Shown here: positions 311 to 63,758 of the stretch, in pieces
Layout of the letters: the number at the start of each line of letters is the position of its first letter
How positions within the stretch are numbered: position 1 is the stretch's first letter
IMG/VR virus record: IMGVR_UViG_3300013723_000002
Reading direction: 5' to 3' (one strand)
DNA from: a virus
Length of the DNA stretch: 64,000 nt
Program-made: the position numbers and the translations under genes
The notes under the pieces: generated by a model
Database searches by the model: none
Seen by the model: the letters and a program-made list of their open reading frames with translations, nothing else
What the model was told of the DNA's origin: nothing

Positions 311-325
311 AAATTTTTTTGTTCC
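311..325 (-). promoter_or_regulatory. late-unit motif copy 1 (sense: GGAACAAAAAAATTT)
   Basis: GGAAC plus A-run, 67 nt upstream of the ATG at 258. Confidence 0.5.
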
Positions 326-378
326 AGCTGTCAAAAGTTGAAAGGCTATACTCAAAACTTCATTAAATAAAAATATTT

Positions 379-834
379 TTATTCTCGGCGGTGTATAAAT
401 TCAACTTTTCCATTATGTAGAGTAATACTACCCAAACTTCTATAGTCCCAAGTTTCGCTTATTCCATATTTGCTTTCCGTACTTCTCTTAGAAAAAGGCT
501 TACCCCAAGTAGATTCCAAAAGTTCACTCGCGGTCATACCGACTTTTGGAATTTTTTTATTAAGAAAAGATGAACCTTTATAAGTTCCATCTTTATCAAA
601 TTTTTCAGGATATTTTTGCTTATATGCTTCTATATCAGCCTTTCTATTTTCTACGCCAATTGCTCCACTATAAAGAGAGCGGTCATTATCAGGAATGGTA
701 ATTGTAGTAGTTGATTTTGCAATTTCTTCAGAATGATTAGTTTCTATGGACAGTGGAATGCTTACAATCTCTACTTGTTTTGCATAAGCTGTTGAAGATA
801 TTAAACCTAGTGAAATTAATAAAATTTTATTCAT
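379..834 (-). CDS. secreted protein of unknown function (moron)
   Basis: N-terminal signal peptide (MNKILLISLGLISSTAYA). The C-terminal GMTASELLESTWGKP...ETWDY...GKV pattern resembles a BamE/SmpA_OmlA-like fold. AT-rich insert lying between a terminator and the next late motif. Confidence 0.55.
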   Translation of the reverse strand: MNKILLISLGLISSTAYAKQVEIVSIPLSIETNHSEEIAKSTTTITIPDNDRSLYSGAIGVENRKADIEAYKQKYPEKFDKDGTYKGSSFLNKKIPKVGMTASELLESTWGKPFSKRSTESKYGISETWDYRSLGSITLHNGKVEFIHRRE

Positions 835-903
835 TTAGATATGTCCAAACTAAGGTCTGAATATCTTAGCTTAAATCCACAATTAGAATTCTGTAGATCT
901 ATG

Positions 904-929
904 AAAAAAGGCCCTCAAGGGGCCTTTTT
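904..929 (-). terminator. rho-independent terminator after 931..1701
   Basis: GGCCC-TCAA-GGGGCC hairpin flanked by A- and T-runs. Confidence 0.6.
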
Positions 930-930
930 G

Positions 931-1701
931 TTATGTTGCCATGAGTATGACTTTTTCTTGTACCACCTTAGCGGCGGCCGGTAATAAATAATGTTCCGGA
1001 TCTTCTTCAGCATACCCCAGTGCTTGTGCGATTAGTGCCTGGTCTACTTCTGCCCCATCGATGATAGATTGATAAAATGCGCCAGCTGCATCAATCGGCG
1101 GATCTTCCCTATTATCCTGGGCTTCTGTTTCAAAATCTTCATCTGCCGTTGTACTATCATCATCAATTGCCACACTACTAAATAGATCATTCGGGTTATG
1201 ATGCTTGACCGCTTTATCACCAGTTATAAATAGATCCTGAATATATGCCCACTCAATAAAGGGCCAGATCGCATTTTTAGGCTTGATATAGTCATCAATT
1301 GCCATGCCGCCGTCTTTTTTCTGGATATATAAACCTTCTGCTAAATCAGTAAATAACCGGGCACGAACAAATGGCTGGCCCTTTTCATCATGCAAGTTGG
1401 CATTTAAAGCAAGAAGAATAGGAGTTATTAAGTCAGTCTGGCCCTTATGTTCTGCGACAAAATTATGTAACTGTTTTTCCAGGTCTACATGCGGTTTAAG
1501 TCGTACACCTAAACGGCCCTTTTCCTGGACAATTTCACTTAAAGTTTTGCCTGCAATATCACCACCAGTAAGGTCCTTAATAATTTCATCAATACGGCGT
1601 ACTTTCTCAATACGTTCCATTAATGGCAAGGTACCACCGAGTACCAGGTTAGCTAGGTTGTCCAGTTCCTGAGTCAGTTTTAGCTTAGTAATTAGATCCA
1701 T
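931..1701 (-). CDS. hypothetical virion-associated protein with acidic C-terminal half
   Basis: 256-aa ORF that abuts the stop of 1705..4377. I recognise no family. Confidence 0.55.
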   Translation of the reverse strand: MDLITKLKLTQELDNLANLVLGGTLPLMERIEKVRRIDEIIKDLTGGDIAGKTLSEIVQEKGRLGVRLKPHVDLEKQLHNFVAEHKGQTDLITPILLALNANLHDEKGQPFVRARLFTDLAEGLYIQKKDGGMAIDDYIKPKNAIWPFIEWAYIQDLFITGDKAVKHHNPNDLFSSVAIDDDSTTADEDFETEAQDNREDPPIDAAGAFYQSIIDGAEVDQALIAQALGYAEEDPEHYLLPAAAKVVQEKVILMAT

Positions 1702-1704
1702 GTC

Positions 1705-4377
1705 TTAAACTCCCTGCGCCTTGGCAACTTTAGCTTTAGTTACAGTGTTTAAGGCTTCTTCTAATTTCGCATAAATTGGCTGATCCGGCTCACTGGCATA
1801 TTTTTGGGCTACGTTCATAAAATCGTCCATATTTAACGTGGTCGCATCAATTTCGCCTCCAATAATCTGGTCTAGCCAGGCTTCATCTGGATTCATTTCA
1901 TTACCCTGTATTGGATCTGTTTGTTCGGCTAAAAGCCCATGTTGCTGTAAATAGATTTTGCTCTTTTCCATACGGTCTTGGGTCACACTTAAACCTACAT
2001 CGTCCAGATTGCCGCGTTCAATTTTACCCTGGTAGAGTTCATAAAGTTTTTCATGAGCAAAGTTTATCTCTGCTTCAGATAGTTTCCCTGCATCTTTTAA
2101 TTTGTTGGCCAGTAAATCAATATGACGGTTGGCCAGATCTGCTGGATCTACACTATCTGTTTTATTTAAAAACTTGATCCAGTTTTCTTCGTGGTCGTAA
2201 CGTTCAAAAAGATTCATTTCTTCATTAGCCCGGACTCGCTCCATAGGATTATCAGACAGTGGATTGAGCTTGCCGTTTTCATCCCGTAATTGATCCAGCT
2301 GGGCATTTAAATCTAATTTTTTCTGTTCAGAGGCAAGTTGTTTTTTTGCTTTAATAACTTCAATCGGCTGAGCTTCACGGCCTTGGGCTATATCCGCTGC
2401 GAGCTTTGAATCATAGCTATTCATGGCTTTGATTAGGCCACTTGCAAAGAGTTCAGCTTTACTCATTTTTTCAAGTGTGGCCAGCGCTGCATCATGAGCC
2501 TGTTTAACACTGGCATAGAAGAAAACATCATTGCCCTTTTCATCTTTAGACGGAATAGACAAATGAGATTTTGAATATATGACTTCTAAGCCTTTCGCCG
2601 TACCTTGGAATGAATCAACCACATAGAACGTTTCCCCATGCACCTGGAAAATTAAACGCGGTTCGGCTTCTGTCACCATTTCGCTATATTTCGGATGGCC
2701 AACGATTACTTTACCGGTCGCTTTAAAATGTTCATCTTCTAGCTCATGTAGAACATAGCCTTCCTCTGTTTTCATAGGTATGTAGCTAGAAAGGTTATGT
2801 GTATTCTTAAATCGATTGGTCATCGATAAAACGCTAAAAGGTTTACCCTTGGGCAAAGTCAAAATATTACCGGCCTTGTCGGTCTTAAAGCCTGCTGCTT
2901 TTGCTGCTTCAGCACCAGGACTAACTACCGGATTGTCTTTACGATACTGATTTAAGTATTCAATTCCTTCCTCTTTCCATTCTGCCTGGGTCGTAGAAAT
3001 GCGGTAGGCCCAGCCTTGTGTTACGGCGTAATTGATCGGCTTGTAAACTTCTGGCGTGTTGTACCATAGTCCACCCCCTGTAAACTGCCGTTCCATTTCA
3101 GTTTTACGTCTAAACGCTGTGGCCACCTCTTCAATGGTGTACGCTTCTTTATCAGTTTTATCAGCATCAGGCTCTATTACTGGCTCATTTTCAGGATCTT
3201 GCTGTGCTGGTATTGGTTCTTGGGCAGCTTCTGTTTTTACTTCTGGTGTTATAACTGCTGCACTTAATGGCTGGTCCAGCTGCTCTTGTAGAGCTGCAAT
3301 TTCTTGATCTAACAGCTGCTCTTCCTGGATCTTCGCCTGTTCATCTTTTTCTAGGTCTACCAATACTTGTTCAGCCTGGGCTTTTCTGGCTAGGCCTTTC
3401 ATAAAACGAGCACTATTGCCTTCAACAATAAGCATCATACGCTTGGCCAAGGTTTGAATATTTACGTTTTTACCGCTCTTGGGTTGCAATACTGCAGTTA
3501 CATCACGCTTATTTAATAAAAACTTCCAGCTGGTTAGTGTATCTGTTGCATCAAGACGTTTTGGCGTAGCATCTGGGTTGTGATAAATAATACTGACGCT
3601 CTGGCCATCACTCATGGTAAAAACAGTCGCAATATTGACTACGCCGTTTTTCTTAAATGGATCTGAGGTAGTCACCTCAACCGGCTTCACTTTTTCACCT
3701 GCAGCTTTACCCATAGCCACCAGTACCCGTTTAGAAAGGGCTTCTAATCGGGAATATTGGGAGATAACTGCATCGAAACCTTCTATTTCAGCGCCATCCA
3801 TAACTTCTTGAATAATCGCTTCCGGTTTAACCGGTAATAGCAATTCACGTGATTCATCATAGGTCGAAATATCGCGTATCAAATGTGAAGCGCTTGCATG
3901 TGAAGTGCAATTATTTTCTTCCCATACAACTGGGTTACCGGTAATTTGAGCGCGTAATGTATCAATCTCTTGTTGAGTAATACGCCCCTGGTAATTTTCT
4001 CGTGAAGCATGATTAACCAGGCGCTCTAAAACGAATGTAGGCGCTTCTATTACGTCATAAGCATTAATCTGAGCAATTGCCCCATAATCATAATTAAACA
4101 TCCGTAGCGCGAAATTAGCGGCTTGCTCGTCACTGATTGCACCCAGAACGGCGACTGAGGTTAAAAACACATTGTTCTGGTCCACCAAATTAGTAATACG
4201 CCATGTATCACGTTGGGTATAACCAGGAATTGCGAGTGCTTTAAGGGCAGTATATTGGCCATAAATATACCCAACATCGGCAATACAAATTGCCTCACCT
4301 TTTGAACCATCCTGATTGTTATATGGTCGGCTAGTTCCCTTATAAAAACTCACCGTTAAAATTGAATCATTTTTCAT
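1705..4377 (-). CDS. large (890 aa) phage structural or ejected protein, function unknown
   Basis: Long ORF with a central coiled-coil/Q-E-rich segment and its own late motif. Confidence 0.6.
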   Translation of the reverse strand: MKNDSILTVSFYKGTSRPYNNQDGSKGEAICIADVGYIYGQYTALKALAIPGYTQRDTWRITNLVDQNNVFLTSVAVLGAISDEQAANFALRMFNYDYGAIAQINAYDVIEAPTFVLERLVNHASRENYQGRITQQEIDTLRAQITGNPVVWEENNCTSHASASHLIRDISTYDESRELLLPVKPEAIIQEVMDGAEIEGFDAVISQYSRLEALSKRVLVAMGKAAGEKVKPVEVTTSDPFKKNGVVNIATVFTMSDGQSVSIIYHNPDATPKRLDATDTLTSWKFLLNKRDVTAVLQPKSGKNVNIQTLAKRMMLIVEGNSARFMKGLARKAQAEQVLVDLEKDEQAKIQEEQLLDQEIAALQEQLDQPLSAAVITPEVKTEAAQEPIPAQQDPENEPVIEPDADKTDKEAYTIEEVATAFRRKTEMERQFTGGGLWYNTPEVYKPINYAVTQGWAYRISTTQAEWKEEGIEYLNQYRKDNPVVSPGAEAAKAAGFKTDKAGNILTLPKGKPFSVLSMTNRFKNTHNLSSYIPMKTEEGYVLHELEDEHFKATGKVIVGHPKYSEMVTEAEPRLIFQVHGETFYVVDSFQGTAKGLEVIYSKSHLSIPSKDEKGNDVFFYASVKQAHDAALATLEKMSKAELFASGLIKAMNSYDSKLAADIAQGREAQPIEVIKAKKQLASEQKKLDLNAQLDQLRDENGKLNPLSDNPMERVRANEEMNLFERYDHEENWIKFLNKTDSVDPADLANRHIDLLANKLKDAGKLSEAEINFAHEKLYELYQGKIERGNLDDVGLSVTQDRMEKSKIYLQQHGLLAEQTDPIQGNEMNPDEAWLDQIIGGEIDATTLNMDDFMNVAQKYASEPDQPIYAKLEEALNTVTKAKVAKAQGV

Positions 4378-4430
4378 GCAGAAAAACCTTATTGAACGTA
4401 TGCCGCAAGATTAATTCTTTTAAAAAATGC

Positions 4431-4446
4431 TAAATTTTATTGTTCC
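4431..4446 (-). promoter_or_regulatory. late-unit motif copy 2 (sense: GGAACAATAAAATTTA)
   Basis: GGAAC lies 69 nt upstream of the ATG at 4377, directly downstream of the terminator at 4458-4476. Confidence 0.5.
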
Positions 4447-4457: not shown

Positions 4458-4476
4458 AAGGCCCATAAAAGGGCCT
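4458..4476 (-). terminator. terminator hairpin after 4482..5171
   Basis: AGGCCC-ATAAAA-GGGCCT hairpin. Confidence 0.5.
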
Positions 4477-4481
4477 GAGCA

Positions 4482-5171
4482 TCACAATGGCATAAACGGT
4501 CGGGCTTGGGAAAAAGTGATTGGAATAGTTAGGGCTGATCCTTCTGACGCTGCCAGTTCTAGTGAGGCTTGGGTCGCCTTAACCAAATATCGGGATTTAA
4601 AAGATGGAGCGGCAAGGCCCTTGTCACGGTTATAAAGCCATAGATCCATCCACATAACATATTCAGCCGGTAATCCATAACTGCCATCTACATGACAAAC
4701 TAGCTGAGCATATTGCATCAAACTGTGAGCCACATAATTATTTTTCGTTTCAATCATTGTTAAAGTAATCTCAGGCGACTGGCTACCTGTGATGTGATTA
4801 GCGTTGTAATGGCCCATGCGTTTACTATCAGTATCAAACTGAAGTAATGGCACAGATAGCTCGGTAGCTAACCAAGGCATAAGATTATTAGTAACAAGTT
4901 CTAAATTGCGGGTTGCATTATTTCTGTAAGCTGAAAACTGCACTAAATAAAAGGATTTATGCTGAATACCCAATTTATAAAGATCTCGATATAGACCCAC
5001 AAATCTATCTCTAGGCATACCGCCCCAATTTAGGTTTACTGGTCCATTTCCTGTAGCCGTGGTACCAAGATCAAGGCCTCCCATATTAGGCAATCGGTCA
5101 CTGATAAAACCTTTCGCAGCTGTTTTAGCTTTACCGGCCGCTTTTTGTTTAAGCTGATTTATGTCGAGCAT
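4482..5171 (-). CDS. hypothetical virion structural protein (229 aa)
   Basis: Start overlaps the stop of the upstream gene (TAATG), which suggests translational coupling. Confidence 0.55.
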   Translation of the reverse strand: MLDINQLKQKAAGKAKTAAKGFISDRLPNMGGLDLGTTATGNGPVNLNWGGMPRDRFVGLYRDLYKLGIQHKSFYLVQFSAYRNNATRNLELVTNNLMPWLATELSVPLLQFDTDSKRMGHYNANHITGSQSPEITLTMIETKNNYVAHSLMQYAQLVCHVDGSYGLPAEYVMWMDLWLYNRDKGLAAPSFKSRYLVKATQASLELAASEGSALTIPITFSQARPFMPL

Positions 5172-6778
5172 TAGTAATCCTCTTCATTATCATTGAAACC
5201 TGTGCCATTAGCTGCTGGCTCTTCATAATCACCAGGATTATCCTCACCAGATAAATCAGTCTGCGGCTTACCCTTTTCTAAAGCATTCACATAGATCTCG
5301 GCCTCTTCATCATCACAACCGCCGATTTTAGTAAGTACAGTAAAGTTACTTTCTCTGTCCAGATTAAGTTCTTTAAGCGTACCCAATGCACTACCAAACA
5401 TGGCCATTGTATTGGATCTCGTTTGCTTGTTTGTCAGTGCTTCAGTTGAGGCCGCTGAAATATCAGAATAAAACTCGAATTGCCAAGGCAGATCTTGAGG
5501 ATCAAACATATAGCCGTATTTATAGCCAATATGAACATTGGCAATATGATTAAAGGCTTTCGTTGTTGCGGCACGAACATGAACGGAGCGTTGGGCAACT
5601 TGCGCCGATGTATGAAAAAAACCACCATCACCAAGACCACCAGACAATTGTTCAGCCCATCCCAAAAGTGATAAGTCTGTACCCAGTGCCCCTGCCATAC
5701 GGCGAACATTGATCATGAGCGGTTCAGGATTCACTGGTGCGGATCTGCGACTCATATCACCAATTGCATTAAGCACTTGCTTGTCACCCCACACGGGTAA
5801 AATATGCCAGGCTTTAGACCAAATCGCGTCCCCACCTTTTAAGGCATCCCGGACATTGTTTTTATGGGATTGCAACATTTGAGTGAGGCCGGCTTTATAT
5901 TTTTTCCGTTGTTCTGGCGGCATACCCGATACGTCAAATGTTAAAAATGCTTGCTCTACACTATCTGCAATCTGTTGTGAGTTTAATGCTTGTAGCAGCA
6001 GCTGAACGTTTGCCCAAGGTTCTTCGGCGTCATACAGAATAGATCCGCCAATCTCACTGGCCACAATCGGAAGTTTATTAATATCATTCTCAGACAGCAT
6101 ATTTTTATGCAAATACGGATTAATTGAGAATTGCGGCACTGGTGTGTAACGTGGCATTTTCATACGTGCCATCTGAAAAGTAGTGAGCTTGGTGAGCTTT
6201 CGCATTTCCAGATCATTTTTTTCTAAAATATGATAACCAATTGTTCGCCCGCCCTGCTCATAAGACTGAATTAACGGCGGTTCAGTATATTCATTACAAA
6301 TAAGCTGCAGCAGTCCTGCACCTTTGGCCCCATACATACGCACATAACTATCGCCGTAAGATACGCCGTAACGTGCCATTGGGAATGCAATTTCATTGAA
6401 AAGCGGCATCAATAGCCGGGCTTCTCTCTCAACCAACTGTCTTAAATGTCGTGCTCGTTTTCCGCCATTCCTTAGTTTTTGAGAAGGTGTCATAAAAACC
6501 ACATCACCACGGGATTCATGGCCCCCTAAAGCTGCTGTGGTCTGCAAGTTAAGAGCAGCTGCAATGGTCGGATCATGTTGCATTACCGCCCACGTGGTAT
6601 AGATCGTTTTACGGTCACGTTTGCGAAGTTCGCTGTTTTCATAGGTGCCCAGTGAAAACATTTCAAAATTATCGTACCGGCTATCTACTTCACCGATATT
6701 GGCCTGTATTTGTCCGGCAGATGCCGCACGTTCGGCATGAATAAACTGGCCCAAGAAATTACCAAATAACGATTTCAT
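5171..6778 (-). CDS. putative portal protein (535 aa)
   Basis: Size, acidic C-terminal tail and position at the head of a structural unit. The family was not verified. Confidence 0.4.
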   Translation of the reverse strand: MKSLFGNFLGQFIHAERAASAGQIQANIGEVDSRYDNFEMFSLGTYENSELRKRDRKTIYTTWAVMQHDPTIAAALNLQTTAALGGHESRGDVVFMTPSQKLRNGGKRARHLRQLVEREARLLMPLFNEIAFPMARYGVSYGDSYVRMYGAKGAGLLQLICNEYTEPPLIQSYEQGGRTIGYHILEKNDLEMRKLTKLTTFQMARMKMPRYTPVPQFSINPYLHKNMLSENDINKLPIVASEIGGSILYDAEEPWANVQLLLQALNSQQIADSVEQAFLTFDVSGMPPEQRKKYKAGLTQMLQSHKNNVRDALKGGDAIWSKAWHILPVWGDKQVLNAIGDMSRRSAPVNPEPLMINVRRMAGALGTDLSLLGWAEQLSGGLGDGGFFHTSAQVAQRSVHVRAATTKAFNHIANVHIGYKYGYMFDPQDLPWQFEFYSDISAASTEALTNKQTRSNTMAMFGSALGTLKELNLDRESNFTVLTKIGGCDDEEAEIYVNALEKGKPQTDLSGEDNPGDYEEPAANGTGFNDNEEDY

Positions 6779-6832
6779 TAATTTTCACTAATCTGTTCTA
6801 TTTGACAGCATTTTGAAGCAGCAAAAATAGGG

Positions 6833-6848
6833 TATTTTTTTTAGTTCC
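6833..6848 (-). promoter_or_regulatory. late-unit motif copy 3 (sense: GGAACTAAAAAAAATA)
   Basis: GGAAC lies 70 nt upstream of the ATG at 6778. Confidence 0.5.
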
Positions 6849-6860: not shown

Positions 6861-6875
6861 GGCCCTATTCGGGCC
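6861..6875 (-). terminator. orphaned terminator hairpin (GGCCC-TATTC-GGGCC)
   Basis: Same hairpin-then-motif layout as the other late units. The gene it should terminate (9316..10518) is now separated from it by the IS and ADH insertion. Confidence 0.45.
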
Positions 6876-7044
6876 AGATTATTTGATTTAAATTATTTTG
6901 CTTTATGCAGATCTATCATAAAAATATTCACTTTCAGCAATAAATTATGCAAAAAAAGCGGATTTTCTTGCAGTTTTTATTAGTTTTTGATGAAGAAAAT
7001 TGAAAAATAAAAACAGGTGATTTGATCTGTCTTGATTAAAGAAT

Positions 7045-7069
7045 AAAAAGCGCCTAGAAGGCGCTTTTT
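7045..7069. terminator. bidirectional terminator downstream of the ADH gene
   Basis: AAAAAGCGCC-TAGA-AGGCGCTTTTT perfect hairpin with an A-run and a T-run. Confidence 0.7.
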
Positions 7070-7084
7070 ATTCTTTAAGTAAAT

Positions 7085-8248
7085 TTACGGCGTTAGAATG
7101 ACTTTACGACAGTCTTCTTCCTTTTTATCAAAAATACGGTAACCTTCCGCAGCATCTTCCAGTTTCATGCGATGGGTAATAATCACATCCGGAGACAGAT
7201 CTCCATTTTCGATATGTTCGAGTAACTGCGGCAAGTATTTATGCACATGGGTTTGTCCCATTTTAAAAGTTAAACCTTTGTCAAAGGCATCACCAAACAG
7301 AAAGCCATGAATTGGACCGGCATAAATCCCAGGTACACTCACCACACCGCCGCGTCGGACTGCTGCAATACATTGTCTTAGTGCTGAACCACTCGAACCT
7401 TCTAATTTCAGGTTGGTCATTACTGTTTCCAGAACACTCCCTTTGGCTTCGAAACCAACGGCATCAATAACTGCATCAACACCACGATAACCTGCTGTAT
7501 TTTGAATAATAAATTCAGCTGCATCGACTTCATCAAAGTTGACCGGAATGACCCCATAGGTTTGATGAGCAAATTGCAAGCGATAAGGGTGATGGTCGAC
7601 CATGAAGATCTGTTCGGCACCGAGCATCCGTGCACAAGCGGCAGCCATCAGACCGACTGGACCAGCACCATAAATTGCCACTGTAGAACCACGGGTGACT
7701 TGAGCATTGGTTACTGCCTGCCAGGCTGTTGGCAGAATATCGGTCAGGAATAATACTTTTTCATCAGGCAAGGAGCCGGGAACCTTAAACGGTCCGACAT
7801 TGCCTTTGGGAATCCGCACATATTCGGCCTGACCACCCGGAACACCACCAAACAGGTGGCTAAAGCCAAACAAGGCCGCTCCTGGTGGAATCTGTTTTTT
7901 ATTGAGAATTGCACCACGACCCGTATTGGTATTTTCACAGGCAGCCATCAGTTCATGTTCACAGAAAAAACAGTGACCGCATGCAATGACAAAGGGAATG
8001 ATCACCCGGTCACCTTTTTTGACTTCTGTCACTGCAGGGCCGACTTCTTCTACAACTCCCATAAATTCATGGCCGAAAATATCACCGTCTTCAGTGGCCG
8101 GGATTTTACCCCGGTATAGATGTAGGTCTGAGCCACAGATGGCAGTGGCTGTCACCCTTAAAATAACGTCATCTGGTTCCTGAATCACTGGATCTGGAAC
8201 AGATTCAACTCGTACATCCCGAGCACCATGATAGGTAAGAGCACGCAT
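7085..8248 (-). CDS. Zn-dependent alcohol dehydrogenase, glutathione-independent formaldehyde dehydrogenase-like
   Basis: Catalytic-zinc motif ICGSDLH and GHEFMG. Structural-zinc cysteines [15 protein letters not shown]. Rossmann GAGPVG. Confidence 0.85.
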
Positions 8249-8449: not shown

Positions 8450-9307
8450 GGGTCTGTTGATACTTACTGTTCATAATTAACCCTATAAAGGTAGCCATAA
8501 AAATATACAGGCTAAGGCAACAGAACTTTGATAATTTCTTTTGAGCTTGTCATATCGAGTAGCTATTTCTCTAAATTGCTTTAATCTACAAAACATATTT
8601 TCAACTAAATGCCTGATTTTATATAAATACCAGTCCATATGGTCATTGTTCGATTGGCTATTCGTTTTCTTTGGTATATTCGCTTTAGTCCCTGTTTTCC
8701 TGATCTGTTCACGCAGTGGTTCTGAATCATAGCCTTTATCTGCGCATACCACTTTTGTCTCTTTTAAATCTAATGTTGATATTAAATCAGGCGCAACTTT
8801 AACATCATGTGTGGTTCCATCGGTAATCATGAAATCAATAGGATTGCTATGTGCATCAACAATCAAATGTATTTTTGAGGAGTTTCCTCCTACACTTTTA
8901 GAAATAGATTGATTCGCTATGCCGGCAGAATGTTGATGAGCACGTACATGAGAGCCATCAATAAAAATCCACTCCATATCGGGGCATGAGGCTAGTAATT
9001 TGAATAATCTAAGTAACTTACCGCTGCTTGACCAACGATTAAAACGTTTGAAAATAGAGTTTGAATGACCAAAACAAGAAGGAATATCTCGCCACGGACA
9101 GCCTGTTCTAATTCTATAGAGAATAGCTTCAATAAAATTGCGTAAATTTGAGTTGTGGTGAATGGATAAATTACGCTGAATAACTTTCAACTTTTGCCAG
9201 TGTTGATCTGTCAGCATGGTACGAGGCATAGCGAATAGTAAAATTGGGTTTGGTGATTTGATTTTACTACTTCGCTATTTTTTTAAGCTAAAAGTGTCAA
9301 CACACCC
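8450..9307 (-). mobile_element. IS5-family insertion sequence (~858 bp)
   Basis: Terminal inverted repeats GGGTCTGTTGATACTT (8450-) and GGGTGTGTTGACACTT (reverse complement ending at 9307). Flanking TA on both sides. Single transposase ORF. Confidence 0.8.
8483..9229 (-). CDS. tnp: IS5-family DDE transposase (248 aa)
   Basis: MPRTMLTDQHWQKLK..., GCPWRDIP, DGSHVRAHQH, ADKGYDS and HLVENMFCRLKQFR motifs typical of IS4/IS5 DDE transposases. Confidence 0.85.
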   Translation of the reverse strand: MPRTMLTDQHWQKLKVIQRNLSIHHNSNLRNFIEAILYRIRTGCPWRDIPSCFGHSNSIFKRFNRWSSSGKLLRLFKLLASCPDMEWIFIDGSHVRAHQHSAGIANQSISKSVGGNSSKIHLIVDAHSNPIDFMITDGTTHDVKVAPDLISTLDLKETKVVCADKGYDSEPLREQIRKTGTKANIPKKTNSQSNNDHMDWYLYKIRHLVENMFCRLKQFREIATRYDKLKRNYQSSVALACIFLWLPL

Positions 9308-11416: not shown

Positions 11417-11425
11417 AATTTTCCC

Positions 11426-11866
11426 TTAATCAAGTTCTAGGGAAAAAGGAGGCTCAATACATGCCAGTTGTGGCAGTTTTGCACGTTCCTCTAAATACAA
11501 TTGGCTCGCTTCACTGGCACTTAAACCAAATTCAGCACCACCCAGGCTTTTTAGCGCCTCGATCCGCTGCGCCTCGACTACATTACAATGAGCACGTATA
11601 ACTGGCTCAAGTATGGACCATTCAAAACACTCAATTGTCAGGCTGGAATCTAATGCTACTTTTGCTTTTTCTTGGGCTTGAAAAGCTGCCCATCCCGCAT
11701 AGTAACGGCACTCAGCCAGGATAAGAGTTTCAATCTCGTCCTGGCTCAGTGAATAGCCCGACAATGTGAGCAGATCAAATAACCCTAGGGCTAGTTCTTG
11801 TATAGTACCCGCCTGGCTTGATGGGTAAATATTCAAAACATCGATCTGGCTTAACATTGTCGTCAT
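11426..11866 (-). CDS. hypothetical tail protein (146 aa)
   Basis: ORF in the same operon. No family recognised. Confidence 0.5.
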   Translation of the reverse strand: MTTMLSQIDVLNIYPSSQAGTIQELALGLFDLLTLSGYSLSQDEIETLILAECRYYAGWAAFQAQEKAKVALDSSLTIECFEWSILEPVIRAHCNVVEAQRIEALKSLGGAEFGLSASEASQLYLEERAKLPQLACIEPPFSLELD

Positions 11867-11877
11867 AATTAACTCAC

Positions 11878-54244: not shown

Positions 54245-55732
54245 TTATCGATAATTAGGGAGATAATCTAACAGATCCGGGAATAAGGACAAGTCACCTG
54301 CTAACCGCTGTAATAAATTTTGTTTTACCTGGGCCGGATCAGTCATACCAATAGGCGCATATTTACTTAAAAAGCCCGCATTTTTAACCAATTCCTCACG
54401 ATCTAATTGTGGTAAGAAGCTAAGTGTATGCCCTGGTGTTTCATTCTTCTTATGAACAATCCGATGTTGCAGCTTTTGTTCTATCATGTTTTTAGCCATA
54501 TCATGGCCAACTAAGGTTTTCCATCTGTCATATTCCGGATGACGAATAATTAGATCATTTGGGATCTCTTTCATGTTGTAAATATAAAAGCCAGGCAAAT
54601 GCAGCTTTGAAAGAATAAAATCTATATCCCAATTCCCGTTTTCATCGGGTAGCGCTGACAGTGTATTGCCATCCCCCCGGATAGCCTTTTTAACTTCGCT
54701 AATTTCTTTAAACTCTGCATCTTCAGGTTCAACCTCTGTATCGTCGTAGCGCAAAGAGGTTCCAGTAGCGCCAAGTGAGTCTAATCGTTCCTCTTCAGTA
54801 GGTGCCTGATTAATATTTTGCGGCGGTATAGGTGGCGGTAGATCCGCTTCATCTATCGGCAAGTGTCCATTACCACTTTCAAGAGATTCAGCTGCTTCCT
54901 GGCTAATGCTAACCTTCTGCTTAACAGTAAATTGATAGCCGCTCAAAATACGGCCCTTACTATTCGGATTAGTAATGTACTGGGCTTCAAAATCAATAAT
55001 TAGATCTGTTTCACGGGCAATAGTTTTGACTGTAGTTTTTAATAACCGTCCAAAATTGCTTGTCGTGGCAAATTGCTTGTCATCAAAAATTCCTAAAGCC
55101 TGGCGCAAGTTTTCCTTTTTCATCTGGAAAACACCCTTATTTTTCCAGGCTACGGCCAGCTCATACATACGAAATTCATAAGGGTTATTTAAGTTACCCA
55201 GGTTCCGGATTTCATAGGTTGAGTAATTGCCTTCCAGGTACTGCAAGAACGGGATAATTTGTGGCGAGAAATAAACCTGGATCAATGCCTCGCCTTCCAC
55301 ATAGCTGCACATCGTTGTCCAGCTTAAATCGTTCAGGCGCTTACTTACTTTAGTTGCGCCCTGGTAATCGTCAATCCAGCTGATTGTCCGTTTACGCAAA
55401 CTCTGAGCTGCTTCAGCTAAAACGCCGTAAGCATTCTGTTTAGTGGTTTTAAAGAAATTAGCATAAGTATTTGCATGAATCGTTACCGGTTCCAATGGGC
55501 TAAACTCAACCTTGGTCTGGTCACGGCGCATAATGACAATAGCCAAGGCAATGATACGCATTTCAGTGAGTGATAGCTCATAAGCTGCGGAAATTAAGCT
55601 ATTGTGCTTAAAGATTTTTTCATAACCCTGTACTTGGTATTCTTGCGGGTCAAGACTCTGCATATACGCCAATGAAGAAAGGTTAGGATCAAATGGCTTT
55701 TTTTCAGCTTCTATTTTAGAGGTTTTAGGCAT
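54245..55732 (-). CDS. rep: Rep_3-family plasmid replication initiator with a long C-terminal extension (495 aa)
   Basis: KHNSLISAAYELSLTEMRIIALAI is a Rep_3 hallmark. An adjacent iteron array is present. Confidence 0.8.
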   Translation of the reverse strand: MPKTSKIEAEKKPFDPNLSSLAYMQSLDPQEYQVQGYEKIFKHNSLISAAYELSLTEMRIIALAIVIMRRDQTKVEFSPLEPVTIHANTYANFFKTTKQNAYGVLAEAAQSLRKRTISWIDDYQGATKVSKRLNDLSWTTMCSYVEGEALIQVYFSPQIIPFLQYLEGNYSTYEIRNLGNLNNPYEFRMYELAVAWKNKGVFQMKKENLRQALGIFDDKQFATTSNFGRLLKTTVKTIARETDLIIDFEAQYITNPNSKGRILSGYQFTVKQKVSISQEAAESLESGNGHLPIDEADLPPPIPPQNINQAPTEEERLDSLGATGTSLRYDDTEVEPEDAEFKEISEVKKAIRGDGNTLSALPDENGNWDIDFILSKLHLPGFYIYNMKEIPNDLIIRHPEYDRWKTLVGHDMAKNMIEQKLQHRIVHKKNETPGHTLSFLPQLDREELVKNAGFLSKYAPIGMTDPAQVKQNLLQRLAGDLSLFPDLLDYLPNYR

Positions 55733-55948: not shown

Positions 55949-56432
55949 TAATAAATTAATTTTATAGGTTTTGATTGCTTATTTTGCATTCAACTTGTTC
56001 ATTTTTTATATATTTTTCAGTGGTTAATAAAAAAACAATAAATTAATTTAATTAAGTAATTGTTTTTTAGTATTTAATTTTTTGACGTGTAAGTTACTTG
56101 ATTCAAACTAGGCGCATGTAAGTTACTTGATCTGAACTCTTTTTACCCATGTAAGTTACTTGATTCAAACTAGGTACTTTCATGTAAGTTACTTGATTCT
56201 TTCATACTAAATATTTGTTTTTAATAATAAAAAATATCGTCATGTAAGTTACTTGATTCAAACTAAAGCTATTTTTGGCTAAACAATATACTTTTTACAG
56301 TATAAGTTTTTGTTTTATATAAATATTTAAGTAAAAAACCATACTGAGTGTTTTTTAAGCATGTAAGTTACTTGATTCAAACTATGTAAGTTACTTGATT
56401 TAAACTAGGTACTTTCATGTAAGTTACTTGAT
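55881..56432 (+). repeat. oriV iteron array: nine direct copies of TGTAAGTTACTTGAT(TCAAACTA)
   Basis: Cores start at 55881, 56088, 56117, 56150, 56183, 56243, 56362, 56385 and 56418. An AT-rich block at 55950-56080 lies inside the array. Confidence 0.85.
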
Positions 56433-56847
56433 TCACACAAAGCTGGAAAGCCTTGCTACATAAGGCTTTGCCGGGAGCGGAAAAGATATAGTTTAAAAAG
56501 ATATATCTATATAAGATATAGACTCATTACTGATTCATTACCACGGTAAATAATCATTCATAAAAAATGCTACGCATTTTTTATTCATTTACGAAGTTTA
56601 TTTAAAGAAAAAAGACTTAGCTGGCTACGCCAGCTAAGTTTTATCTTTTTAAATTTTTAAATTTTTGTTTTTGTACGATTACATTAAGGACTTCACGACC
56701 AGATCTATAACTTGGATATTCGGTTATTAATTTAAACATCTTGGGATACTTTGATAACTAATAAATCATTTCACCTATAAAAATAGAGTGAATAGCCTAA
56801 GCCTATTATTTGTCCAGTAAGGCAATATTTAAATAAAATCTCTTGAA

Positions 56848-56943: not shown

Positions 56944-57606
56944 ATGAGTACAGAAAAGAAAAATACAAAATTTATCACTTTGGCCCAGCTCAAGGGTGGA
57001 GTAGGTAAAAGTACCCTGGCTGTCCACATTGCAGGTTTTCTGGCAAACAATGGTCATACTGTCGCGTTACTTGATAGCGATAGCCCACAATATACATCAA
57101 CAAACTGGTACAACATTGGACCAGAAAAAACCAATATTGATCTTGGCCAAGTATCTACTGCTGAAGAGTTAATAGCTGCAGTAAACCACTATGAAGGTAA
57201 AGTGGATTTTGTAGTAACGGATCTCGCGCCACGTTTGGAAGAAATTACAAAAGTCGGTTTGGCCATATCTGATTTTGCCGTAGTACCGGTCAATATGGAT
57301 CTCGTTGAAATATGGGCCTTGGATATTATGCGCGGCCTACTGGTCAAGGCTGCTGAAGATGTGCCCCATTTTAACTATCGTGTCCTGGCCAACAAATTTA
57401 AAACGAATGATCCTGACCACCAGGAACGTTATGAATTGATTAAGTCTGAATTTGGACTTGAACTGTTTGAAACTAAGATTGGCCAGCGTAAAGCTGTTCG
57501 CCAGATGCTTGAACAGGGTAAGACTGTTTTTGAGTCGAAAAACTCTATTGCTAAGAATGAGTTTATGTCCCTGATCAACGAAATTAAAACTATATTGGAA
57601 ATCTAA
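56944..57606 (+). CDS. parA: ParA-family partition ATPase
   Basis: Deviant Walker A, LKGGVGKST. 220 aa. Confidence 0.85.
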   Translation: MSTEKKNTKFITLAQLKGGVGKSTLAVHIAGFLANNGHTVALLDSDSPQYTSTNWYNIGPEKTNIDLGQVSTAEELIAAVNHYEGKVDFVVTDLAPRLEEITKVGLAISDFAVVPVNMDLVEIWALDIMRGLLVKAAEDVPHFNYRVLANKFKTNDPDHQERYELIKSEFGLELFETKIGQRKAVRQMLEQGKTVFESKNSIAKNEFMSLINEIKTILEI

Positions 57607-57872: not shown

Positions 57873-58571
57873 ATGAAAAAAGCCATAGGTTATGTGCGTG
57901 TTAGTACCGATAAGCAGGCGACTGAAGGCGTATCTATTGAAGCTCAAATAGAGAAGATTAAGGCCTGGGCAATATTCAATGAATATGAGCTGCTGCATAT
58001 CTATAACGATGAAGGTATTTCTGGTGCCTCATTGAATAAACGTGACGGAATGCAGCAAGCCTTATCACAAGTTAAAAAAGGCATGGCTTTTGTTTGCTAT
58101 AGCTTGAGCCGTGTTAGCCGTGATCTTGCTGATACCCTGCACATTAGCCGTACTATTGAAAAAGCTGGCGCGGATCTGGTAAGCCTGAGTGAAAAAATTG
58201 ATACTACAGGCGCCTCCGGAAAAATGGTTTTTAATATGTTCGCCGTACTCAATCAGTTTGAGCGTGACCAGACGGCGGAACGTACCAGATCTGCAATGCA
58301 ATATAAAAAAAAGAATGACCAGGCTTATAGTCCTACACCTTATGGCTATGATCGCCAGGATAAAGAGCTGGTATTAAATCCGATAGAGGCGGCCGTAGTC
58401 GTGGCCATTCAGGATATGGCCCAGGAAGGCAAAGGTTATGCCGAAATAGCCAGGCATTTAAATCAAAATAATATACCGACCAAGACAGGTAAACTGTGGA
58501 GGGCCAATACTGTTTTTTATCTGCTGCAAAGAACAAAAATTACTGCTGATATGCTGACGTCCTTGGAATAA
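57873..58571 (+). CDS. serine recombinase (resolvase/invertase family)
   Basis: MKKAIGYVRVSTDKQ catalytic-serine motif and a C-terminal HTH (GYAEIARHLNQNNIPTKTG). Confidence 0.85.
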   Translation: MKKAIGYVRVSTDKQATEGVSIEAQIEKIKAWAIFNEYELLHIYNDEGISGASLNKRDGMQQALSQVKKGMAFVCYSLSRVSRDLADTLHISRTIEKAGADLVSLSEKIDTTGASGKMVFNMFAVLNQFERDQTAERTRSAMQYKKKNDQAYSPTPYGYDRQDKELVLNPIEAAVVVAIQDMAQEGKGYAEIARHLNQNNIPTKTGKLWRANTVFYLLQRTKITADMLTSLE

Positions 58572-60971: not shown

Positions 60972-61830
60972 GGGCGTGTTGAACATTGGGTATAAATTAA
61001 TGGCAAAAAAAATAGCGAACGGTTAATCTTTAAGTTCTCACACAAAAAAGATATCGTTCGCTATGCCTCGCACCATGCTCAAAGATGAACACTGGACAAG
61101 ACTGAAACCTATATTACTAGAACTTAATATCTATGACAAAGGAAATCTTAGACAAACGGTTGAAGGCGTGCTTTATCGCATGCGTGTTGGCTGTCCTTGG
61201 CGCGACTTACCCGAGTATTTTGGCAAGCCTAATACCATCTATAAAGCTTCCCAGCGCTGGTTTCGCAGTAATAAGCTGATTGCATTATTTACGTTACTGA
61301 TCAAAGACGCAGACCTTGAGTGGGTCTTTATCGATGGCACTCATATTAAAGCGCATCAGCACAGCAATGGAGGCAACGAGAACCTACAATCCATTAGCAA
61401 AAGTGTGGCAGGCCGCGCGACCAAGATTCACTTAGCAGTTGATGCTCATGGCAATCCGATTATCTTTCTTTTATCAGATGGCACAACCCACGATGTCAAA
61501 GTCGCACCTGATTTAATAGATAAGGTTAATTTGAGCGATACAGAGGTTTTATGTGCCGATAAAGGCTATGATTCTGATGCACTACGAGCCCATATTGAAC
61601 AAGCAGGGACGCATAATAACATCCCTCGAAAACGAAACACTCAGTCTTCTAACGACCATATGGACTGGGACTTGTATAAAGCCAGGCATCTAGTAGAAAA
61701 TGCTTTCGCTAAGCTAAAACAGTATAGGGCGGTTGCCACCAGATTTGATAAGCTCAAGCAGAGTTATGAAAATACGGTCGCTCTTGCTTGTGCTTATATC
61801 TGGCTCAAATTATGAATGTTCAACAGGCTC
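60972..61830 (+). mobile_element. second, diverged IS5-family insertion sequence (~859 bp)
   Basis: Inverted repeats GGGCGTGTTGAACATT and (reverse complement) GAGCCTGTTGAACATT. TA on both flanks. Confidence 0.8.
61063..61815 (+). CDS. tnp: IS5-family DDE transposase (250 aa)
   Basis: Collinear with 8483..9229 (MPRTML.D.HW..LK, GCPWRDLP, ADKGYDS, HLVENAFAKLKQYR) but clearly diverged from it. Confidence 0.85.
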   Translation: MPRTMLKDEHWTRLKPILLELNIYDKGNLRQTVEGVLYRMRVGCPWRDLPEYFGKPNTIYKASQRWFRSNKLIALFTLLIKDADLEWVFIDGTHIKAHQHSNGGNENLQSISKSVAGRATKIHLAVDAHGNPIIFLLSDGTTHDVKVAPDLIDKVNLSDTEVLCADKGYDSDALRAHIEQAGTHNNIPRKRNTQSSNDHMDWDLYKARHLVENAFAKLKQYRAVATRFDKLKQSYENTVALACAYIWLKL

Positions 61831-61965
61831 TAGTTATAACTTCCAAACTTTAAATTAATTGAGTAGAACGCACTGCCTTACACAATAACGCTTTATACTT
61901 TTCTATTGTCATGTTCAAATAAAACTGATTAAAAATAATCTGATCATAACAAAGGTACTTAACCT

Positions 61966-62784
61966 ATGATAATGAATAAAAACGTGAATAATAAATGGCA
62001 TGCTGACCCATTTTTTCAACAAGCCACCCACACAAGACAGATGTCACAAGGTGAGGCTCAGCTGCCTATTAAGTACTTTGATGCGTCAAGCCTGATTGCT
62101 TTTTTTATGGTCGATTATGACAAAGCAGTCAGTGTATTGGACAATCCAAAGTTAAAGGTTGCTAAGCTTATAGGCAATAAAGCGTTATTTAGTCTAGCTT
62201 TCTATGATTATCGTGAATTAACTGATGGCGAGCCTTATCACGAAGTTGCATCAAGTATGCTTGTCTATCCTGCAGACCAAGACACACCGACTCATCCATT
62301 GGTGGAAATGACATTACCACCAGATCGACGCAATACCGGCATGTGGGTTTGTGATTTACCGGTAACCACCGAAGTTGCGTGTCGTGCAGGTAAAGAATTA
62401 TGGGGCTACCCGAAATTCGTCACCGATATTGATTTTAATTTAGACAATAAGGATTTTAGTAGTTCTGTCAAACATCCAGAGAATCCTCAAACATCAATCT
62501 TGTCATTATCAGGTACGATCGGCGCATCAGTTACCGCACCTTGGGCAGACTTAGTTTTATATTCAATGTTAAATGATGCGTTAATACGGGCAACCGCAGA
62601 TACACGTACATTAAATGGCGCTAAAATTGCCACTAAAGGTGATCTTAAGCTAAGTGTTGATACAACGAACAGTCACCCAATGGCACAAAGGCTCAATAGT
62701 CTTGAGTTAAATGGTGCGACGCCTTTTTCAGTCACCTTTACTGATAGCTTGCAATTGCGTTTAAATGAAGGCGTAATTTTTTGA
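61966..62784 (+). CDS. acetoacetate decarboxylase (ADC)-like family protein
   Basis: PIKYFDASSLIAFF...F.DY....GEPYHEV...GKELWGYPKF pattern. Recognised from memory only. Confidence 0.45.
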   Translation: MIMNKNVNNKWHADPFFQQATHTRQMSQGEAQLPIKYFDASSLIAFFMVDYDKAVSVLDNPKLKVAKLIGNKALFSLAFYDYRELTDGEPYHEVASSMLVYPADQDTPTHPLVEMTLPPDRRNTGMWVCDLPVTTEVACRAGKELWGYPKFVTDIDFNLDNKDFSSSVKHPENPQTSILSLSGTIGASVTAPWADLVLYSMLNDALIRATADTRTLNGAKIATKGDLKLSVDTTNSHPMAQRLNSLELNGATPFSVTFTDSLQLRLNEGVIF

Positions 62785-62910
62785 TTGATGATTTGAACTT
62801 CAAAAATCTGCTTACAGTAAATTTTTTTAAGGAGCAATTCAATAATCAATTAACTCCTTCTACTTTAATGCTAACATGCTTACTTAAACAATCAGACTCA
62901 TAATATCTAT

Positions 62911-62938
62911 TGTTCGCATAACGGGCGTTATGACAAAT
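62911..62938 (+). promoter_or_regulatory. pdif-like XerC/XerD site
   Basis: TGTTCGCATAA-CGGGCG-TTATGACAAAT, compared with the Acinetobacter pdif pattern ATTTCGYATAA-N6-TTATGTTAAWT. Confidence 0.4.
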
Positions 62939-63150
62939 GACTTCAATTAGAACGGTAATCATCCCAAGTATCAGACCCTTATCTAATAGAATTAAGTTGC
63001 ATACCACTCTTTGAGCCGGTAGTGAGAAGTCAATTACTTTTTAACAGACGGTATACCCCAAAGGAACCACTTAAAAAGCCTCTTAGGCCTATTAATAGGC
63101 TACCTAAAACAGACCAATATAAGAGAACCACTTATAATAAACTGCTAGCC

Positions 63151-63593
63151 TTAATACTCTAAATAATCCCTGATTGGACGTTTCTTAAATTGAGAAGCGT
63201 CTTTTTTAAGGCGATTAACCATCTCAAACTCCCATCCTTGCTGCGACTGTCCAGCTGGGCTAGTCGGACTTACTAAATGATTGTATTCTGCCATAAAAGC
63301 AGGATTGCGAACGATACGTCCTAGCTGTTTATCATTTAAACCCTCAACTGTGAACATATCAGCAGTATCAACATCACGCAACTTACTTGTTTTTTCTGTT
63401 TTAGTTTTCAGTTTCTCATGAACTACAAACTTAAAGCCTGTAATTGTCCTACCTTTTTTCACCTGCGTATAACTGACTTTAATATCTGATTTTTCATTAA
63501 TTTCTTTAACAGCAAGGTCTAATACTCTTAGTTTAAAGTTACCCATACGCTTGTATTCATGATCTTCTATACCTAACTGGTCTCTGAACTTGT
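63151..63593 (-). pseudogene. 5'-truncated Rep_3-family replication initiator gene
   Basis: The C-terminal half (…LGIEDHEYKRMGNFKLRVLDLAVKEINEKSDIKV…) reads through to the IS remnant junction at 63593/63594. The N-terminal half is missing. Confidence 0.65.
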
Positions 63594-63675
63594 TAAGCTC
63601 AAGCAGAGTTATGAAAATACGGTCGCTCTTGCTTGTGCTTATATCTGGCTCAAATTATGAATGTTCAACAGGCTC
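63594..63675 (+). mobile_element. 82-bp remnant identical to the right end of the IS at 60972..61830
   Basis: Matches 61749-61830 base for base, including the IRR and the following TA. Confidence 0.85.
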
Positions 63676-63740
63676 TAATATAGCAGTGATTATATTTGGT
63701 AATTTTTATAAGAAATCCTTTATGAGCTTTTTCTTTTCCT

Positions 63741-63758
63741 GGAACAATAAAAAAAAGC
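63741..63758 (+). promoter_or_regulatory. late-unit motif copy 15 (plus strand: GGAACAATAAAAAAAAGC)
   Basis: GGAAC lies 67 nt upstream of the ATG at 63808. Homologous to 17285-17302. Confidence 0.5.

Follow-up and report, generated by a model that had tools for sequence, protein, structure and literature searches.

Putative activator-dependent late promoters marked by an asymmetric GGAAY box in a family of Acinetobacter phage-plasmids

What turns on the late genes of a virus that repeats one short motif in front of each late transcription unit? This question is raised by the IMG/VR virus record IMGVR_UViG_3300013723_000002, of which a stretch of 64 kb (hereafter the window; 40.7% G+C, 59% A+T) was analyzed here. 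An earlier reading of the same DNA (the original prediction) had reported 15 copies of a motif composed of GGAAC, an A-run, a G/C core and a T-run, and had suggested a phage-specific late promoter or activator site or, alternatively, an RNA-level element. Based on sequence statistics and comparative genomics, on which all claims made below rest, we estimate at about 0.68 the probability that these sites are previously undescribed sigma-70 late promoters that depend on an activator, lack a -35 element and carry a GGAAY box at about -45 to -41.

All 15 reported copies were located, 14 on the minus strand and one on the plus strand. Offset 0 is defined throughout as the first G of GGAAC in the sense orientation, which lies at plus-strand coordinates 325, 4446, 6848, 12577, 16063, 17302, 22140, 25756, 27882, 30030, 31682, 34040, 34682 and 44603 for the minus-strand sites and at 63741 for the plus-strand site; the copies had previously been placed by the far end of the motif on the plus strand, not by this first G. 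In the sense orientation, the window sites read (T/C)(T/G)-GGAAC, a 9-nucleotide (nt) A-rich run, TAGC or a short G/C core, and a T-run. GGAAC or CGAAC is found in 14 of the 15 sites, CGAAC being the form at 22140, 30030 and 34682, and the copy at 27882 is degenerate (GGTAA). As had been claimed, every copy is in sense orientation and its first G is 66-70 nt away from the start codon, and for site 22140 another ATG, at offset 81, is better placed to serve as the start. According to PHROG assignments, the genes that follow the sites are of virion or lysis type, including those for the portal, tail tube, sheath, two tail-fibre paralogues, large terminase and a tail-tip lysozyme-like protein.

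The motif is strongly enriched. With at most one mismatch, GGAACAAWAAAA matches the window 17 times against 1.98 expected, a count that was reached by none of 100 dinucleotide-preserving shuffles, and no antisense hit was found, each site being sense to its following gene. These figures argue against the possibility, raised with the original prediction, that the motif is equally frequent at random positions or in antisense orientation. A position weight matrix (PWM) covering offsets -3 to +26 gave 15 window hits at or above 18 bits and none in any of 10 shuffles; the hits comprise 13 of the 15 reported sites (30030 is at the cut-off, and the degenerate copy at 27882 scores 12 bits) and two intragenic matches on the minus strand. 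The latter, at 40339 and 50344, are weaker and encode Met-Glu-Gln-Lys/Asn. The match at 40339 is located inside the open reading frame (ORF) 40207-40755, reads GGAACAAAAAAATAAGC and scores 18.7 bits; CAATAA is present at offset 33, and the next ORF starts 116 nt downstream. For neither match did the PWM give a hit near the homologous gene in the closest relative, Acinetobacter oleivorans. Both are probably coding coincidences, and the one at 40339 might conceivably act as an internal late promoter. A tRNA search of the window found none.

The box is accompanied by a second element. At all 15 window sites a -10-type hexamer of the pattern NANAAT occupies offsets 33-38, or 34-39 in two of them, which leaves a gap of 28-29 nt between GGAAC and the hexamer in every case. 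The hexamers are CAAAAT (five sites), TAGACT (two sites), TAATCT, CACACT, CACAAT, CATAAT, AATAAT, CAGAAT, GAGAAT and CAACAT. We also used a blind set made up of the 15 window sites originally reported and 11 A. oleivorans sites identified by the PWM, which ends at +26. All 26 of these sites have, at offset 33-35, a hexamer whose second base is A and whose sixth is T, as compared with a background of 30%, which is the frequency of this A2 and T6 combination in the same four-offset search. When 62 sites from five genomes were pooled, A2 was present in 60, A4 in 53, A or C at position 5 in all 62, and T6 in 59; the offset of the hexamer from GGAAY was 33 or 34 in 59 of the 62, and the hexamer-to-ATG distance averaged 28.4 nt (standard deviation 5.3). 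Across the relatives, GGAAY-to-ATG ranges from 58 to 85 nt and GGAAY-to-hexamer varies by approximately 1 nt. The rigid spacing of box and hexamer, together with the variable distance from hexamer to ATG, indicates that it is the promoter geometry that is constrained and not the distance to the start codon. The 66-70 nt that had been taken as a fixed feature is therefore a property of the window, where it may result from a short leader after the predicted start.

Between the box and the hexamer little else is shared. The pooled logo contains information only in GGAA(C/T), in a weak A-rich patch from +9 to +13 and in the hexamer, with none between +14 and +32. No -35 hexamer was found, and a sigma-70 consensus scan of 11-31 kb does not flag these sites as full promoters; its sole call near a site (27914-27885) involves a hexamer different from the -10 assigned to the 27882 copy. 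Nor is an extended -10 (TG) conserved, as G occurs at the TG position in only 12 of the 62 pooled sites. In window positions 11001-31000, sigma-70 promoter-like sites are rarer than in shuffles (27 vs 40.3, standard deviation 6.5) and terminator-like sites are commoner (27 vs 18.7). Of the earlier statement that the motif shows no sigma-70 -35/-10 pattern, the part on the -35 holds, and the part on the -10 does not. Two readings of this region were discarded. TTTAGC as a weak -35 with a 15-nt spacer can be seen in the window and in some ABMM1 sites, and is unsupported by the pooled logo. A sigma-54 promoter would have GG and GC exactly 10 nt apart (-24/-12); the GG-to-GC distance in the window is 13-15 nt and variable, in agreement with the original prediction, and the GC is absent in the relatives.

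To what extent does this arrangement extend beyond the window? A megablast search with 20 kb of the late region returned no phage record and one weak plasmid hit, i.e., no close DNA relative. Protein searches with the helix-turn-helix (HTH) gene 46319-47005, one of two candidate regulator genes discussed below, found a few Acinetobacter plasmids and one isolated temperate myovirus, vB_AbaM_ABMM1 (ABMM1), and among 50,697 phage records one isolated phage has the candidate regulator pair. Four complete relatives were compared, namely A. oleivorans NZ_CP110255, A. soli pGFJ2, ABMM1 and A. defluvii p1_010030, along with metagenome contigs chosen via divergent homologues of the other candidate, a protein of 292 amino acids (aa). 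The combination of GGAAY, N28/29 and a -10 box precedes late genes in all seven related elements examined. A. oleivorans has 11 PWM copies with GGAAC before homologous late genes, each with the hexamer at offset 33-35, a region outside the PWM. In ABMM1, TGGAAC is located 28-29 nt before tCAAAATAg-type boxes at 12 late units, with no A-run or T-run. The box is (GGT)GGAAT in A. soli and tAGGAATAT, followed by RARAAAC-GCG-TTTTT, in A. defluvii. Contigs L009 and L010 (44% G+C) have CTGGAAG or GTGGAAC, N28 and CAAAAT, and contigs L012 and L013 (44-46% G+C) have AGGAAC, N28/29 and CATAAT, TACAAT or TATAAT. The pseudo-palindrome of A-run, G/C core and T-run, centred at about -30, is confined to the lineages of the window, A. 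oleivorans and A. defluvii. These segments, originally described as motif parts, are lacking in ABMM1 and in the relatives of 44-46% G+C, and appear to be lineage-specific decoration outside the core signal. The original idea of a phage-specific late promoter or activator site for each late unit is supported and extends to a whole family, made up of phage-plasmids from Acinetobacter and related ones together with temperate myoviruses. The cargo genes found in members of the family include, among others, those for metal resistance and toxin-antitoxin systems. We found no prior account in the literature of the motif, of ABMM1 promoters, of late promoters in Acinetobacter phage-plasmids or of the candidate proteins.

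A -10 without a -35, combined with a phage-specific box before every late unit, is the signature of an activator-dependent late promoter. We propose that host RNA polymerase with its ordinary sigma-70 would read each of these promoters, and that the cAnAAT -10, having neither a -35 nor a TG extension, would leave the promoter silent alone. A phage activator would bind the asymmetric GGAAY, 28-29 base pairs (bp) before the hexamer, and would then recruit or activate the polymerase; if the hexamer is placed at -12 to -7, GGAAY falls at about -45 to -41, the region from which Mu C or lambda cI touch RNA polymerase. In the window, the A-run, G/C core and T-run would fill the -40 to -20 spacer and may add a bend or a second contact. 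Transcription would start approximately 7 nt past the hexamer, giving a leader of about 21-25 nt, and such a leader would explain the near-constant distance of 66-70 nt to the ATG.

The regions that flank the promoters contain further structure. Directly upstream, a strong hairpin followed by a T-run is present at seven sites (4446, 6848, 12577, 16063, 17302, 34040 and 44603), and at one more (25756) a strong hairpin is followed by a weak T-tail, so that the earlier remark that most units are paired with an upstream terminator was right for these sites and slightly overstated. On the downstream side, the original prediction did not describe a class of leader hairpins that straddle the predicted start. 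The segment from hexamer to ATG folds with a z-score below -2 in 25 of the 62 pooled sites. In all 25 of these significant leaders, the 5' arm of the hairpin begins 0-2 nt after the hexamer and the predicted +1 falls inside this arm; the 3' arm holds a Shine-Dalgarno-like GGGC or GAGG, or the ATG. At least 12 leaders across the family have a T-run after the 3' arm, ending 0-6 nt before the ATG. If the RNA is taken to begin at the predicted +1, mean folding energy changes from -6.1 to -2.0 kcal/mol. The strengths of upstream and leader hairpins are negatively correlated (Spearman rho -0.40, p 0.0012), each of the five genomes taken singly also giving a negative value, and at cut-offs of -9.5/-10, 4 sites have both hairpins, 21 the upstream one only, 22 the leader one only and 15 neither (Fisher p 0.0007). 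These comparisons use hairpin energies and rank correlation in place of a terminator classifier (hairpin plus T-count), which was dropped since stems ran into T-runs.

On these grounds we hypothesize that the upstream terminator and the straddling hairpin are alternative means of stopping or silencing read-through into late genes. One would be a terminator upstream of GGAAY. The other would be a hairpin with its 5' arm placed after the hexamer and before +1 and its 3' arm containing the ATG or the Shine-Dalgarno sequence, in many cases with a T-run behind it. Read-through transcripts would form this hairpin and be terminated or left untranslated, and transcripts from the late promoter itself, mostly without the 5' arm, would form none. 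The promoter from which a transcript originates would thus determine whether it is terminated or translated.

Which phage protein might read the box? We compared every window ORF with the four complete relatives using the tblastn program. Within the non-structural half (34.7-64 kb), three ORFs, and no others, have a homologue in every one of them: the gene for the lysozyme-like virion protein (42317-44533), that for the HTH protein (46319-47005) and that for the 292-aa protein (45444-46322), the last two on the minus strand. The HTH protein is a 228-aa protein of XRE type with a helical C-terminal half (phrog_7396; Pfam HTH_3), and the 292-aa protein belongs to phrog_7533. The genes are arranged in the order nuclease (RusA or VRR-NUC), HTH protein, protein of ~290 aa, first late promoter and lysozyme-like gene. 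This whole order is seen again in A. defluvii, in ABMM1 and in contigs L009-L011 and L014, and the short contigs L012 and L013 show the part of it that they cover. The pair closes the early operon directly before the first late promoter; lambdoid phages keep Q at the corresponding place. The recognition helix of the HTH protein (N-R-L-S-E-I-E-N-G) changes little across lineages, with R48, E51, E53 and G55 invariant, and we take this near-constant helix to match the invariant GGAA. In A. defluvii, the HTH homologue (L007, 32314-33618) is 434 aa long and contains the entire unit of HTH and helical part twice in tandem. A profile search with the 292-aa protein gave 92 representatives, and the model built from a 57-sequence alignment is confident, with a predicted local distance difference test score (pLDDT) of 86, and all-helical, with a small domain of four helices at the N-terminus, long helices and a tail that is acidic. 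No credible match to this protein emerged from Pfam with E-values of up to 5 or from searches of the PDB by sequence and by profile, the best hints, themselves not credible, being the Mu repressor DNA-binding domain (E 0.5) and MADF (0.38). A role of the 292-aa protein as small terminase was set aside, as a separate 199-aa gene at 31691-32290 fits: it is found in four of four relatives and belongs to the unit directly upstream of the large terminase, the usual place of a small terminase gene.

Conservation and gene order point to the HTH protein, probably acting with the 292-aa protein, as the candidate late activator. PHROG scans of 30 ORFs from the early and plasmid regions revealed no sigma-, Ogr-, Mor/C- or Q-type family and no late-transcription family, and a Pfam scan of ten of these ORFs likewise gave no family of those types and no Sigma70_r2 or r4 match; the conserved pair matched no sigma family either. 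The more specific proposal, that a new two-protein activator (XRE-HTH plus 292-aa protein) reads a single GGAAY and is combined with split terminators or hairpins that occlude the ribosome-binding site throughout a widespread family, is tentative, and we regard it as possible rather than probable. The early operon also contains a 60-aa C4 zinc-ribbon ORF (48568-48750), which tblastn did not detect in the four complete relatives. In distant relatives, a zinc-finger gene of TraR/DksA type precedes the HTH/~290-aa pair by two genes (L009, 8137-8379). TraR/DksA-type proteins bind the secondary channel of RNA polymerase, and by analogy the zinc-ribbon protein could contribute to the early-late switch.

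Several observations weigh against the proposed promoter and its candidate activator. Conservation and gene order are the entire basis of the activator assignment. The AlphaFold model of the HTH protein, built from 13 sequences, is poor (pLDDT 59) and for this reason was not used for a fold search, and a Foldseek search of the 292-aa model against PDB and BFVD returned generic helical bundles only, with E above 0.3. One would not ordinarily expect an asymmetric site of 5 bp for an HTH protein whose tail is helical and probably dimerises, and we found no second half-site. Position 1 of the pooled hexamers prefers C (29/62) over T (14/62), and sigma-70 prefers T. Part of the site selection in ABMM1, A. 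soli and A. defluvii was done by eye, and orthologous sites are non-independent observations. As for the hairpins, the Fisher test depends on the threshold (p 0.0007 at -9.5/-10, 0.009 at -10/-11 and 0.16-0.2 at two other pairs of cut-offs), and strong hairpins that start just after the hexamer would also fit with transcription starting at or before the hairpin base.

This last point bears on the choice between an activator-dependent sigma-70 promoter and one read by an extracytoplasmic function (ECF)-like or phage sigma factor, in which GGAAC would be the -35, the -10 would lie in the T-run, the start would be in or just before CAAAAT, and the hairpin would be a 5'-terminal stem-loop. GGAAC is indeed the classic ECF -35 core, as in Escherichia coli sigma-E (GGAACTT-N16-TCAAA), and in both cases an A-rich box is found downstream; a +1 in CAAAAT would put GGAAC exactly at -35 to -31, the T-run at offset 20-25 is kept in the window, and the strong leader hairpins, beginning 0-2 nt past the box, look like stabilising 5' stem-loops. 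Nevertheless, the spacing is 28-29 nt here and 16-17 nt in ECF promoters, and offsets 14-32 show no family-wide conservation. No element is shared at offsets 21-27 across the family, and ABMM1 and the higher-G+C relatives have no common -10 there, the only conserved downstream box being that at 33-38. This box, moreover, varies like a sigma-70 -10 (TAGACT, TAATCT, TATAAT, TACAAT and CATAAT, with A2 and T6) and unlike an initiator. Hairpins with T-runs or buried ribosome-binding sites at the 5' end would terminate or silence the most abundant late mRNAs, and their anticorrelation with upstream terminators is unexpected for stabilisers. Neither Pfam (10 ORFs) nor PHROGs (30 ORFs) yielded a sigma family, although a host sigma factor could still serve. 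Taken together, we consider an ECF-like promoter unlikely. The same hairpins could instead be the point of control, if the promoter lay upstream of them and GGAAC were a loading site, similar to the lambda Q-binding element, for a phage factor that binds RNA or polymerase and either reads through the leader terminator or opens the buried ribosome-binding site. The resemblance of at least 12 family leaders to true intrinsic terminators 0-6 nt before the ATG would suit such antitermination or translational activation, as would the location of the candidate regulators at the lambdoid Q place, after a RusA or VRR-NUC nuclease gene, and the 292-aa protein, which has no known fold, could have any function. 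What makes this explanation quite improbable is that a significant hairpin exists in only ~40% of the leaders (25/62), the others requiring no factor, and that 15 separate promoters, along with the terminators upstream of them, would have no purpose under a processive antiterminator; both the position of the hairpins relative to the hexamer and their anticorrelation with upstream terminators fit exclusion of the 5' arm from late transcripts.

The RNA-level element offered as the alternative in the original prediction, i.e., a processing site or a ribosome- or protein-binding site at a fixed distance from the start codon, finds no support in the relatives and appears very improbable. It would account for the 66-70 nt to the ATG at 15 of 15 window sites, and an AU-rich single strand beside a stem-loop resembles an RNase E-type site; in the relatives, however, the distance to the ATG is variable (58-85 nt) and it is the GGAAY-hexamer distance that is fixed. 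No Rfam match occurs anywhere in the window, the A-run and T-run, which ABMM1 and the higher-G+C relatives lack, could pair only weakly through A-U, and half of the sites directly follow a terminator, where little upstream RNA would hold the motif. Finally, sites that are intergenic and lie beside T-runs in a genome of 59% A+T might be suspected of reflecting the composition of A/T-rich DNA after terminators. We give chance practically no weight: none of the 100 shuffles reached the observed count and none of the 10 scanned with the PWM gave a hit, the orientation is strictly sense, and the two-part spacing is kept in seven further elements, some of them without A-runs. The activator-dependent sigma-70 promoter therefore remains the reading that we prefer.

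How does such a promoter compare with known phage systems? Phage P1 has 11 Lpa-dependent late promoters with a sigma-70 -10, no -35 and a 9-bp inverted repeat (PMC10695390). It resembles the present element in being a temperate myovirus kept as a plasmid, in having dispersed late promoters (11 in P1, at least 15 here) and in using a phage-specific element instead of the -35. P1-like accessory genes are also present here, encoding a Hdf-like protein and an 890-aa protein from the PHROG family 'released from the phage upon host infection'. The P1 inverted repeat is centred near -22, and Lpa acts with host SspA; the element found here differs in being an asymmetric pentamer at about -45. The PHROG scans of the 30 early and plasmid-region ORFs found no late promoter activator family, Lpa itself not having been compared directly, and the candidates here belong to the unknown-function families phrog_7396 and phrog_7533. 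Phage Mu likewise has several late promoters dispersed in the genome, with a -10, a poor -35 and an activator site just upstream of the -35 position: the C site is centred near -43.5, and GGAAY here at about -43 to -44. However, C binds as a dimer to an imperfect dyad and no conserved dyad exists here, and C and Mor, the activator of the Mu middle promoter, are proteins of ~130-140 aa unrelated to the 228-aa XRE-HTH and 292-aa candidates. Dispersed late promoters with a -10, without a -35 and under a small phage activator are known from P2, 186 and P4 as well, where Ogr, B and Delta act at a TGT-N12-ACA dyad at about -55; this dyad is absent here, and the zinc-ribbon ORF 48568-48750 is not conserved in the relatives.

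The straddling hairpins have their closest parallel in phage T4, where gene e and I-TevI each have a late promoter within the DNA encoding the 5' side of an inhibitory hairpin (PMC3014915). As at these two genes and at soc, the hairpin would bury the ribosome-binding site in read-through RNA, and the promoter is placed such that its own transcripts would be without the 5' arm. The effect is translational only and concerns few genes in T4, whereas many of the hairpins here also have a T-run, like intrinsic terminators, and occur at many units across the family, where they are known from sequence alone. T4 late promoters themselves (TATAAATA) need gp55, gp33 and gp45 and no upstream box. A T4-type (gp55) promoter was considered and rejected: tCAAAATA matches TATAAATA at 6 of 8 positions, but GGAAY is conserved at a fixed distance upstream.

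Positive control of dispersed phage late promoters that have a -10 and no -35 is already known, and no principle is overturned by our results. What appears to be new, as variants of this theme, is the site with its asymmetry and its position, the two candidate regulators and the use of start-straddling hairpins throughout the family. The rule GGAAY-N28/29-NANAAT can be used to annotate late operons across the family, and two genes of unknown function can be named as its probable lytic-phase master switch. If our interpretation is true, the straddling hairpins would generalise the T4 gene e trick to a family-wide form of insulation, and would offer a compact and reusable part for synthetic biology.

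The individual putative promoters are described below from the hexamer to the first G of the box, all on the minus strand unless otherwise stated. The one at 287-325 comprises GGAAC (321-325), an A-run/TTTAGG/T-run segment and TAGACT (287-292), and its gene starts at 258 and runs off the window. At 4408-4446, GGAAC and TAATCT precede the 890-aa gene 1705-4377 and downstream genes, with a terminator directly upstream (~4459-4480), and at 6810-6848, GGAAC and CAAAAT precede the portal gene 5171-6778, again with a terminator directly upstream (~6861-6878). The tail tube gene 11878-12507 follows GGAAC and CACACT at 12539-12577, which has a terminator at 12588-12606 and a leader hairpin at 12502-12536 that encloses the ATG. 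GGAAC and CAAAAT are found both at 16025-16063 (gene 15364-15993 and the baseplate block; terminator 16068-16094) and at 17264-17302 (gene 16105-17235; terminator within 17304-17343). At 22102-22140, CGAAC and CACAAT precede 20266-22071, the sheath gene and others; both the Shine-Dalgarno sequence and the first ATG are inside the leader hairpin (22062-22103; -20 kcal/mol). GGAAC and CAAAAT at 25718-25756 serve gene 24034-25689, with a leader hairpin (25688-25719) that reaches from the final hexamer bases into the ATG.

The degenerate copy (27843-27882; GGTAA and CATAAT) lies before the tail-fibre gene 25763-27814 and has a long leader hairpin (27824-27866) followed by T7, with the hexamer in its loop. 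The other tail-fibre gene, 27889-29964, follows CGAAC and AATAAT at 29992-30030, and its leader hairpin (29969-29991) is succeeded by TCTT-ATG. For the large terminase gene 30031-31614, GGAAC and TAGACT are located at 31644-31682, with a terminator-like leader hairpin (31621-31648) that is followed by T6 and overlaps the hexamer. The window terminase (527 aa) appears to be free of an intein domain, and an intein (Hint/homing-endonuclease domain) is present in the large terminase homologues of A. soli pGFJ2 (L003) and of contigs L009 and L013. Genes 33102-33971, 32235-33098 and 31691-32290 follow GGAAC and CAGAAT at 34002-34040 (terminator 34046-34078). At 34643-34682, CGAAC and GAGAAT precede gene 34094-34615, the true start of which is ATG 34615, not 34642. 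The promoter at 44565-44603 (GGAAC and CAACAT; terminator directly upstream) belongs to the 738-aa tail-tip lysozyme-like virion gene 42317-44533, which is displaced into the early region. The only plus-strand site, at 63741-63779 with GGAAC and CAAAAT, is an inverted duplicate of the 17302 promoter; its gene starts at 63808 and runs off the window.

This last site is part of a 273-bp inverted duplication (94.5% identity) of 17043-17314 at 63728-64000, which reaches the window end. The duplicated segment consists of the late promoter and ~65 first codons of gene 16105-17235 (phrog_14345). In A. oleivorans, the phrog_14345 N-terminal module adjoins a serine recombinase gene, a homologue of which is found in the window at 57873-58571. 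The duplication suggests paired or switchable tail-fibre-like genes with a common N-terminus.

Additional repeats were detected elsewhere in the window. A 43-bp near-perfect palindrome (93%) lies at 7036-7078, just downstream of ORF 7085-8248, which has no homologue in the relatives. ORF 9316-10518, with homologues in four of four relatives, contains internal direct repeats at 9668-10055 (offset of ~36 bp and longer, 77-91% identity). Between the RepB-like gene 54245-55732 and the ParA-like gene 56944-57606, direct repeats of ~37-51 bp with 88-98% identity (56088-56434) resemble the iterons of a plasmid or a partition site. An 88-bp direct repeat (98.9% identity) is present at 61745-61832 and 63590-63677, one copy overlapping the end of the transposase-like ORF 61063-61815. 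A diverged partial copy of this ORF occurs in inverted orientation at 8597-8860, and the 88-bp repeats and transposase-like copies may be remnants of insertion sequences.

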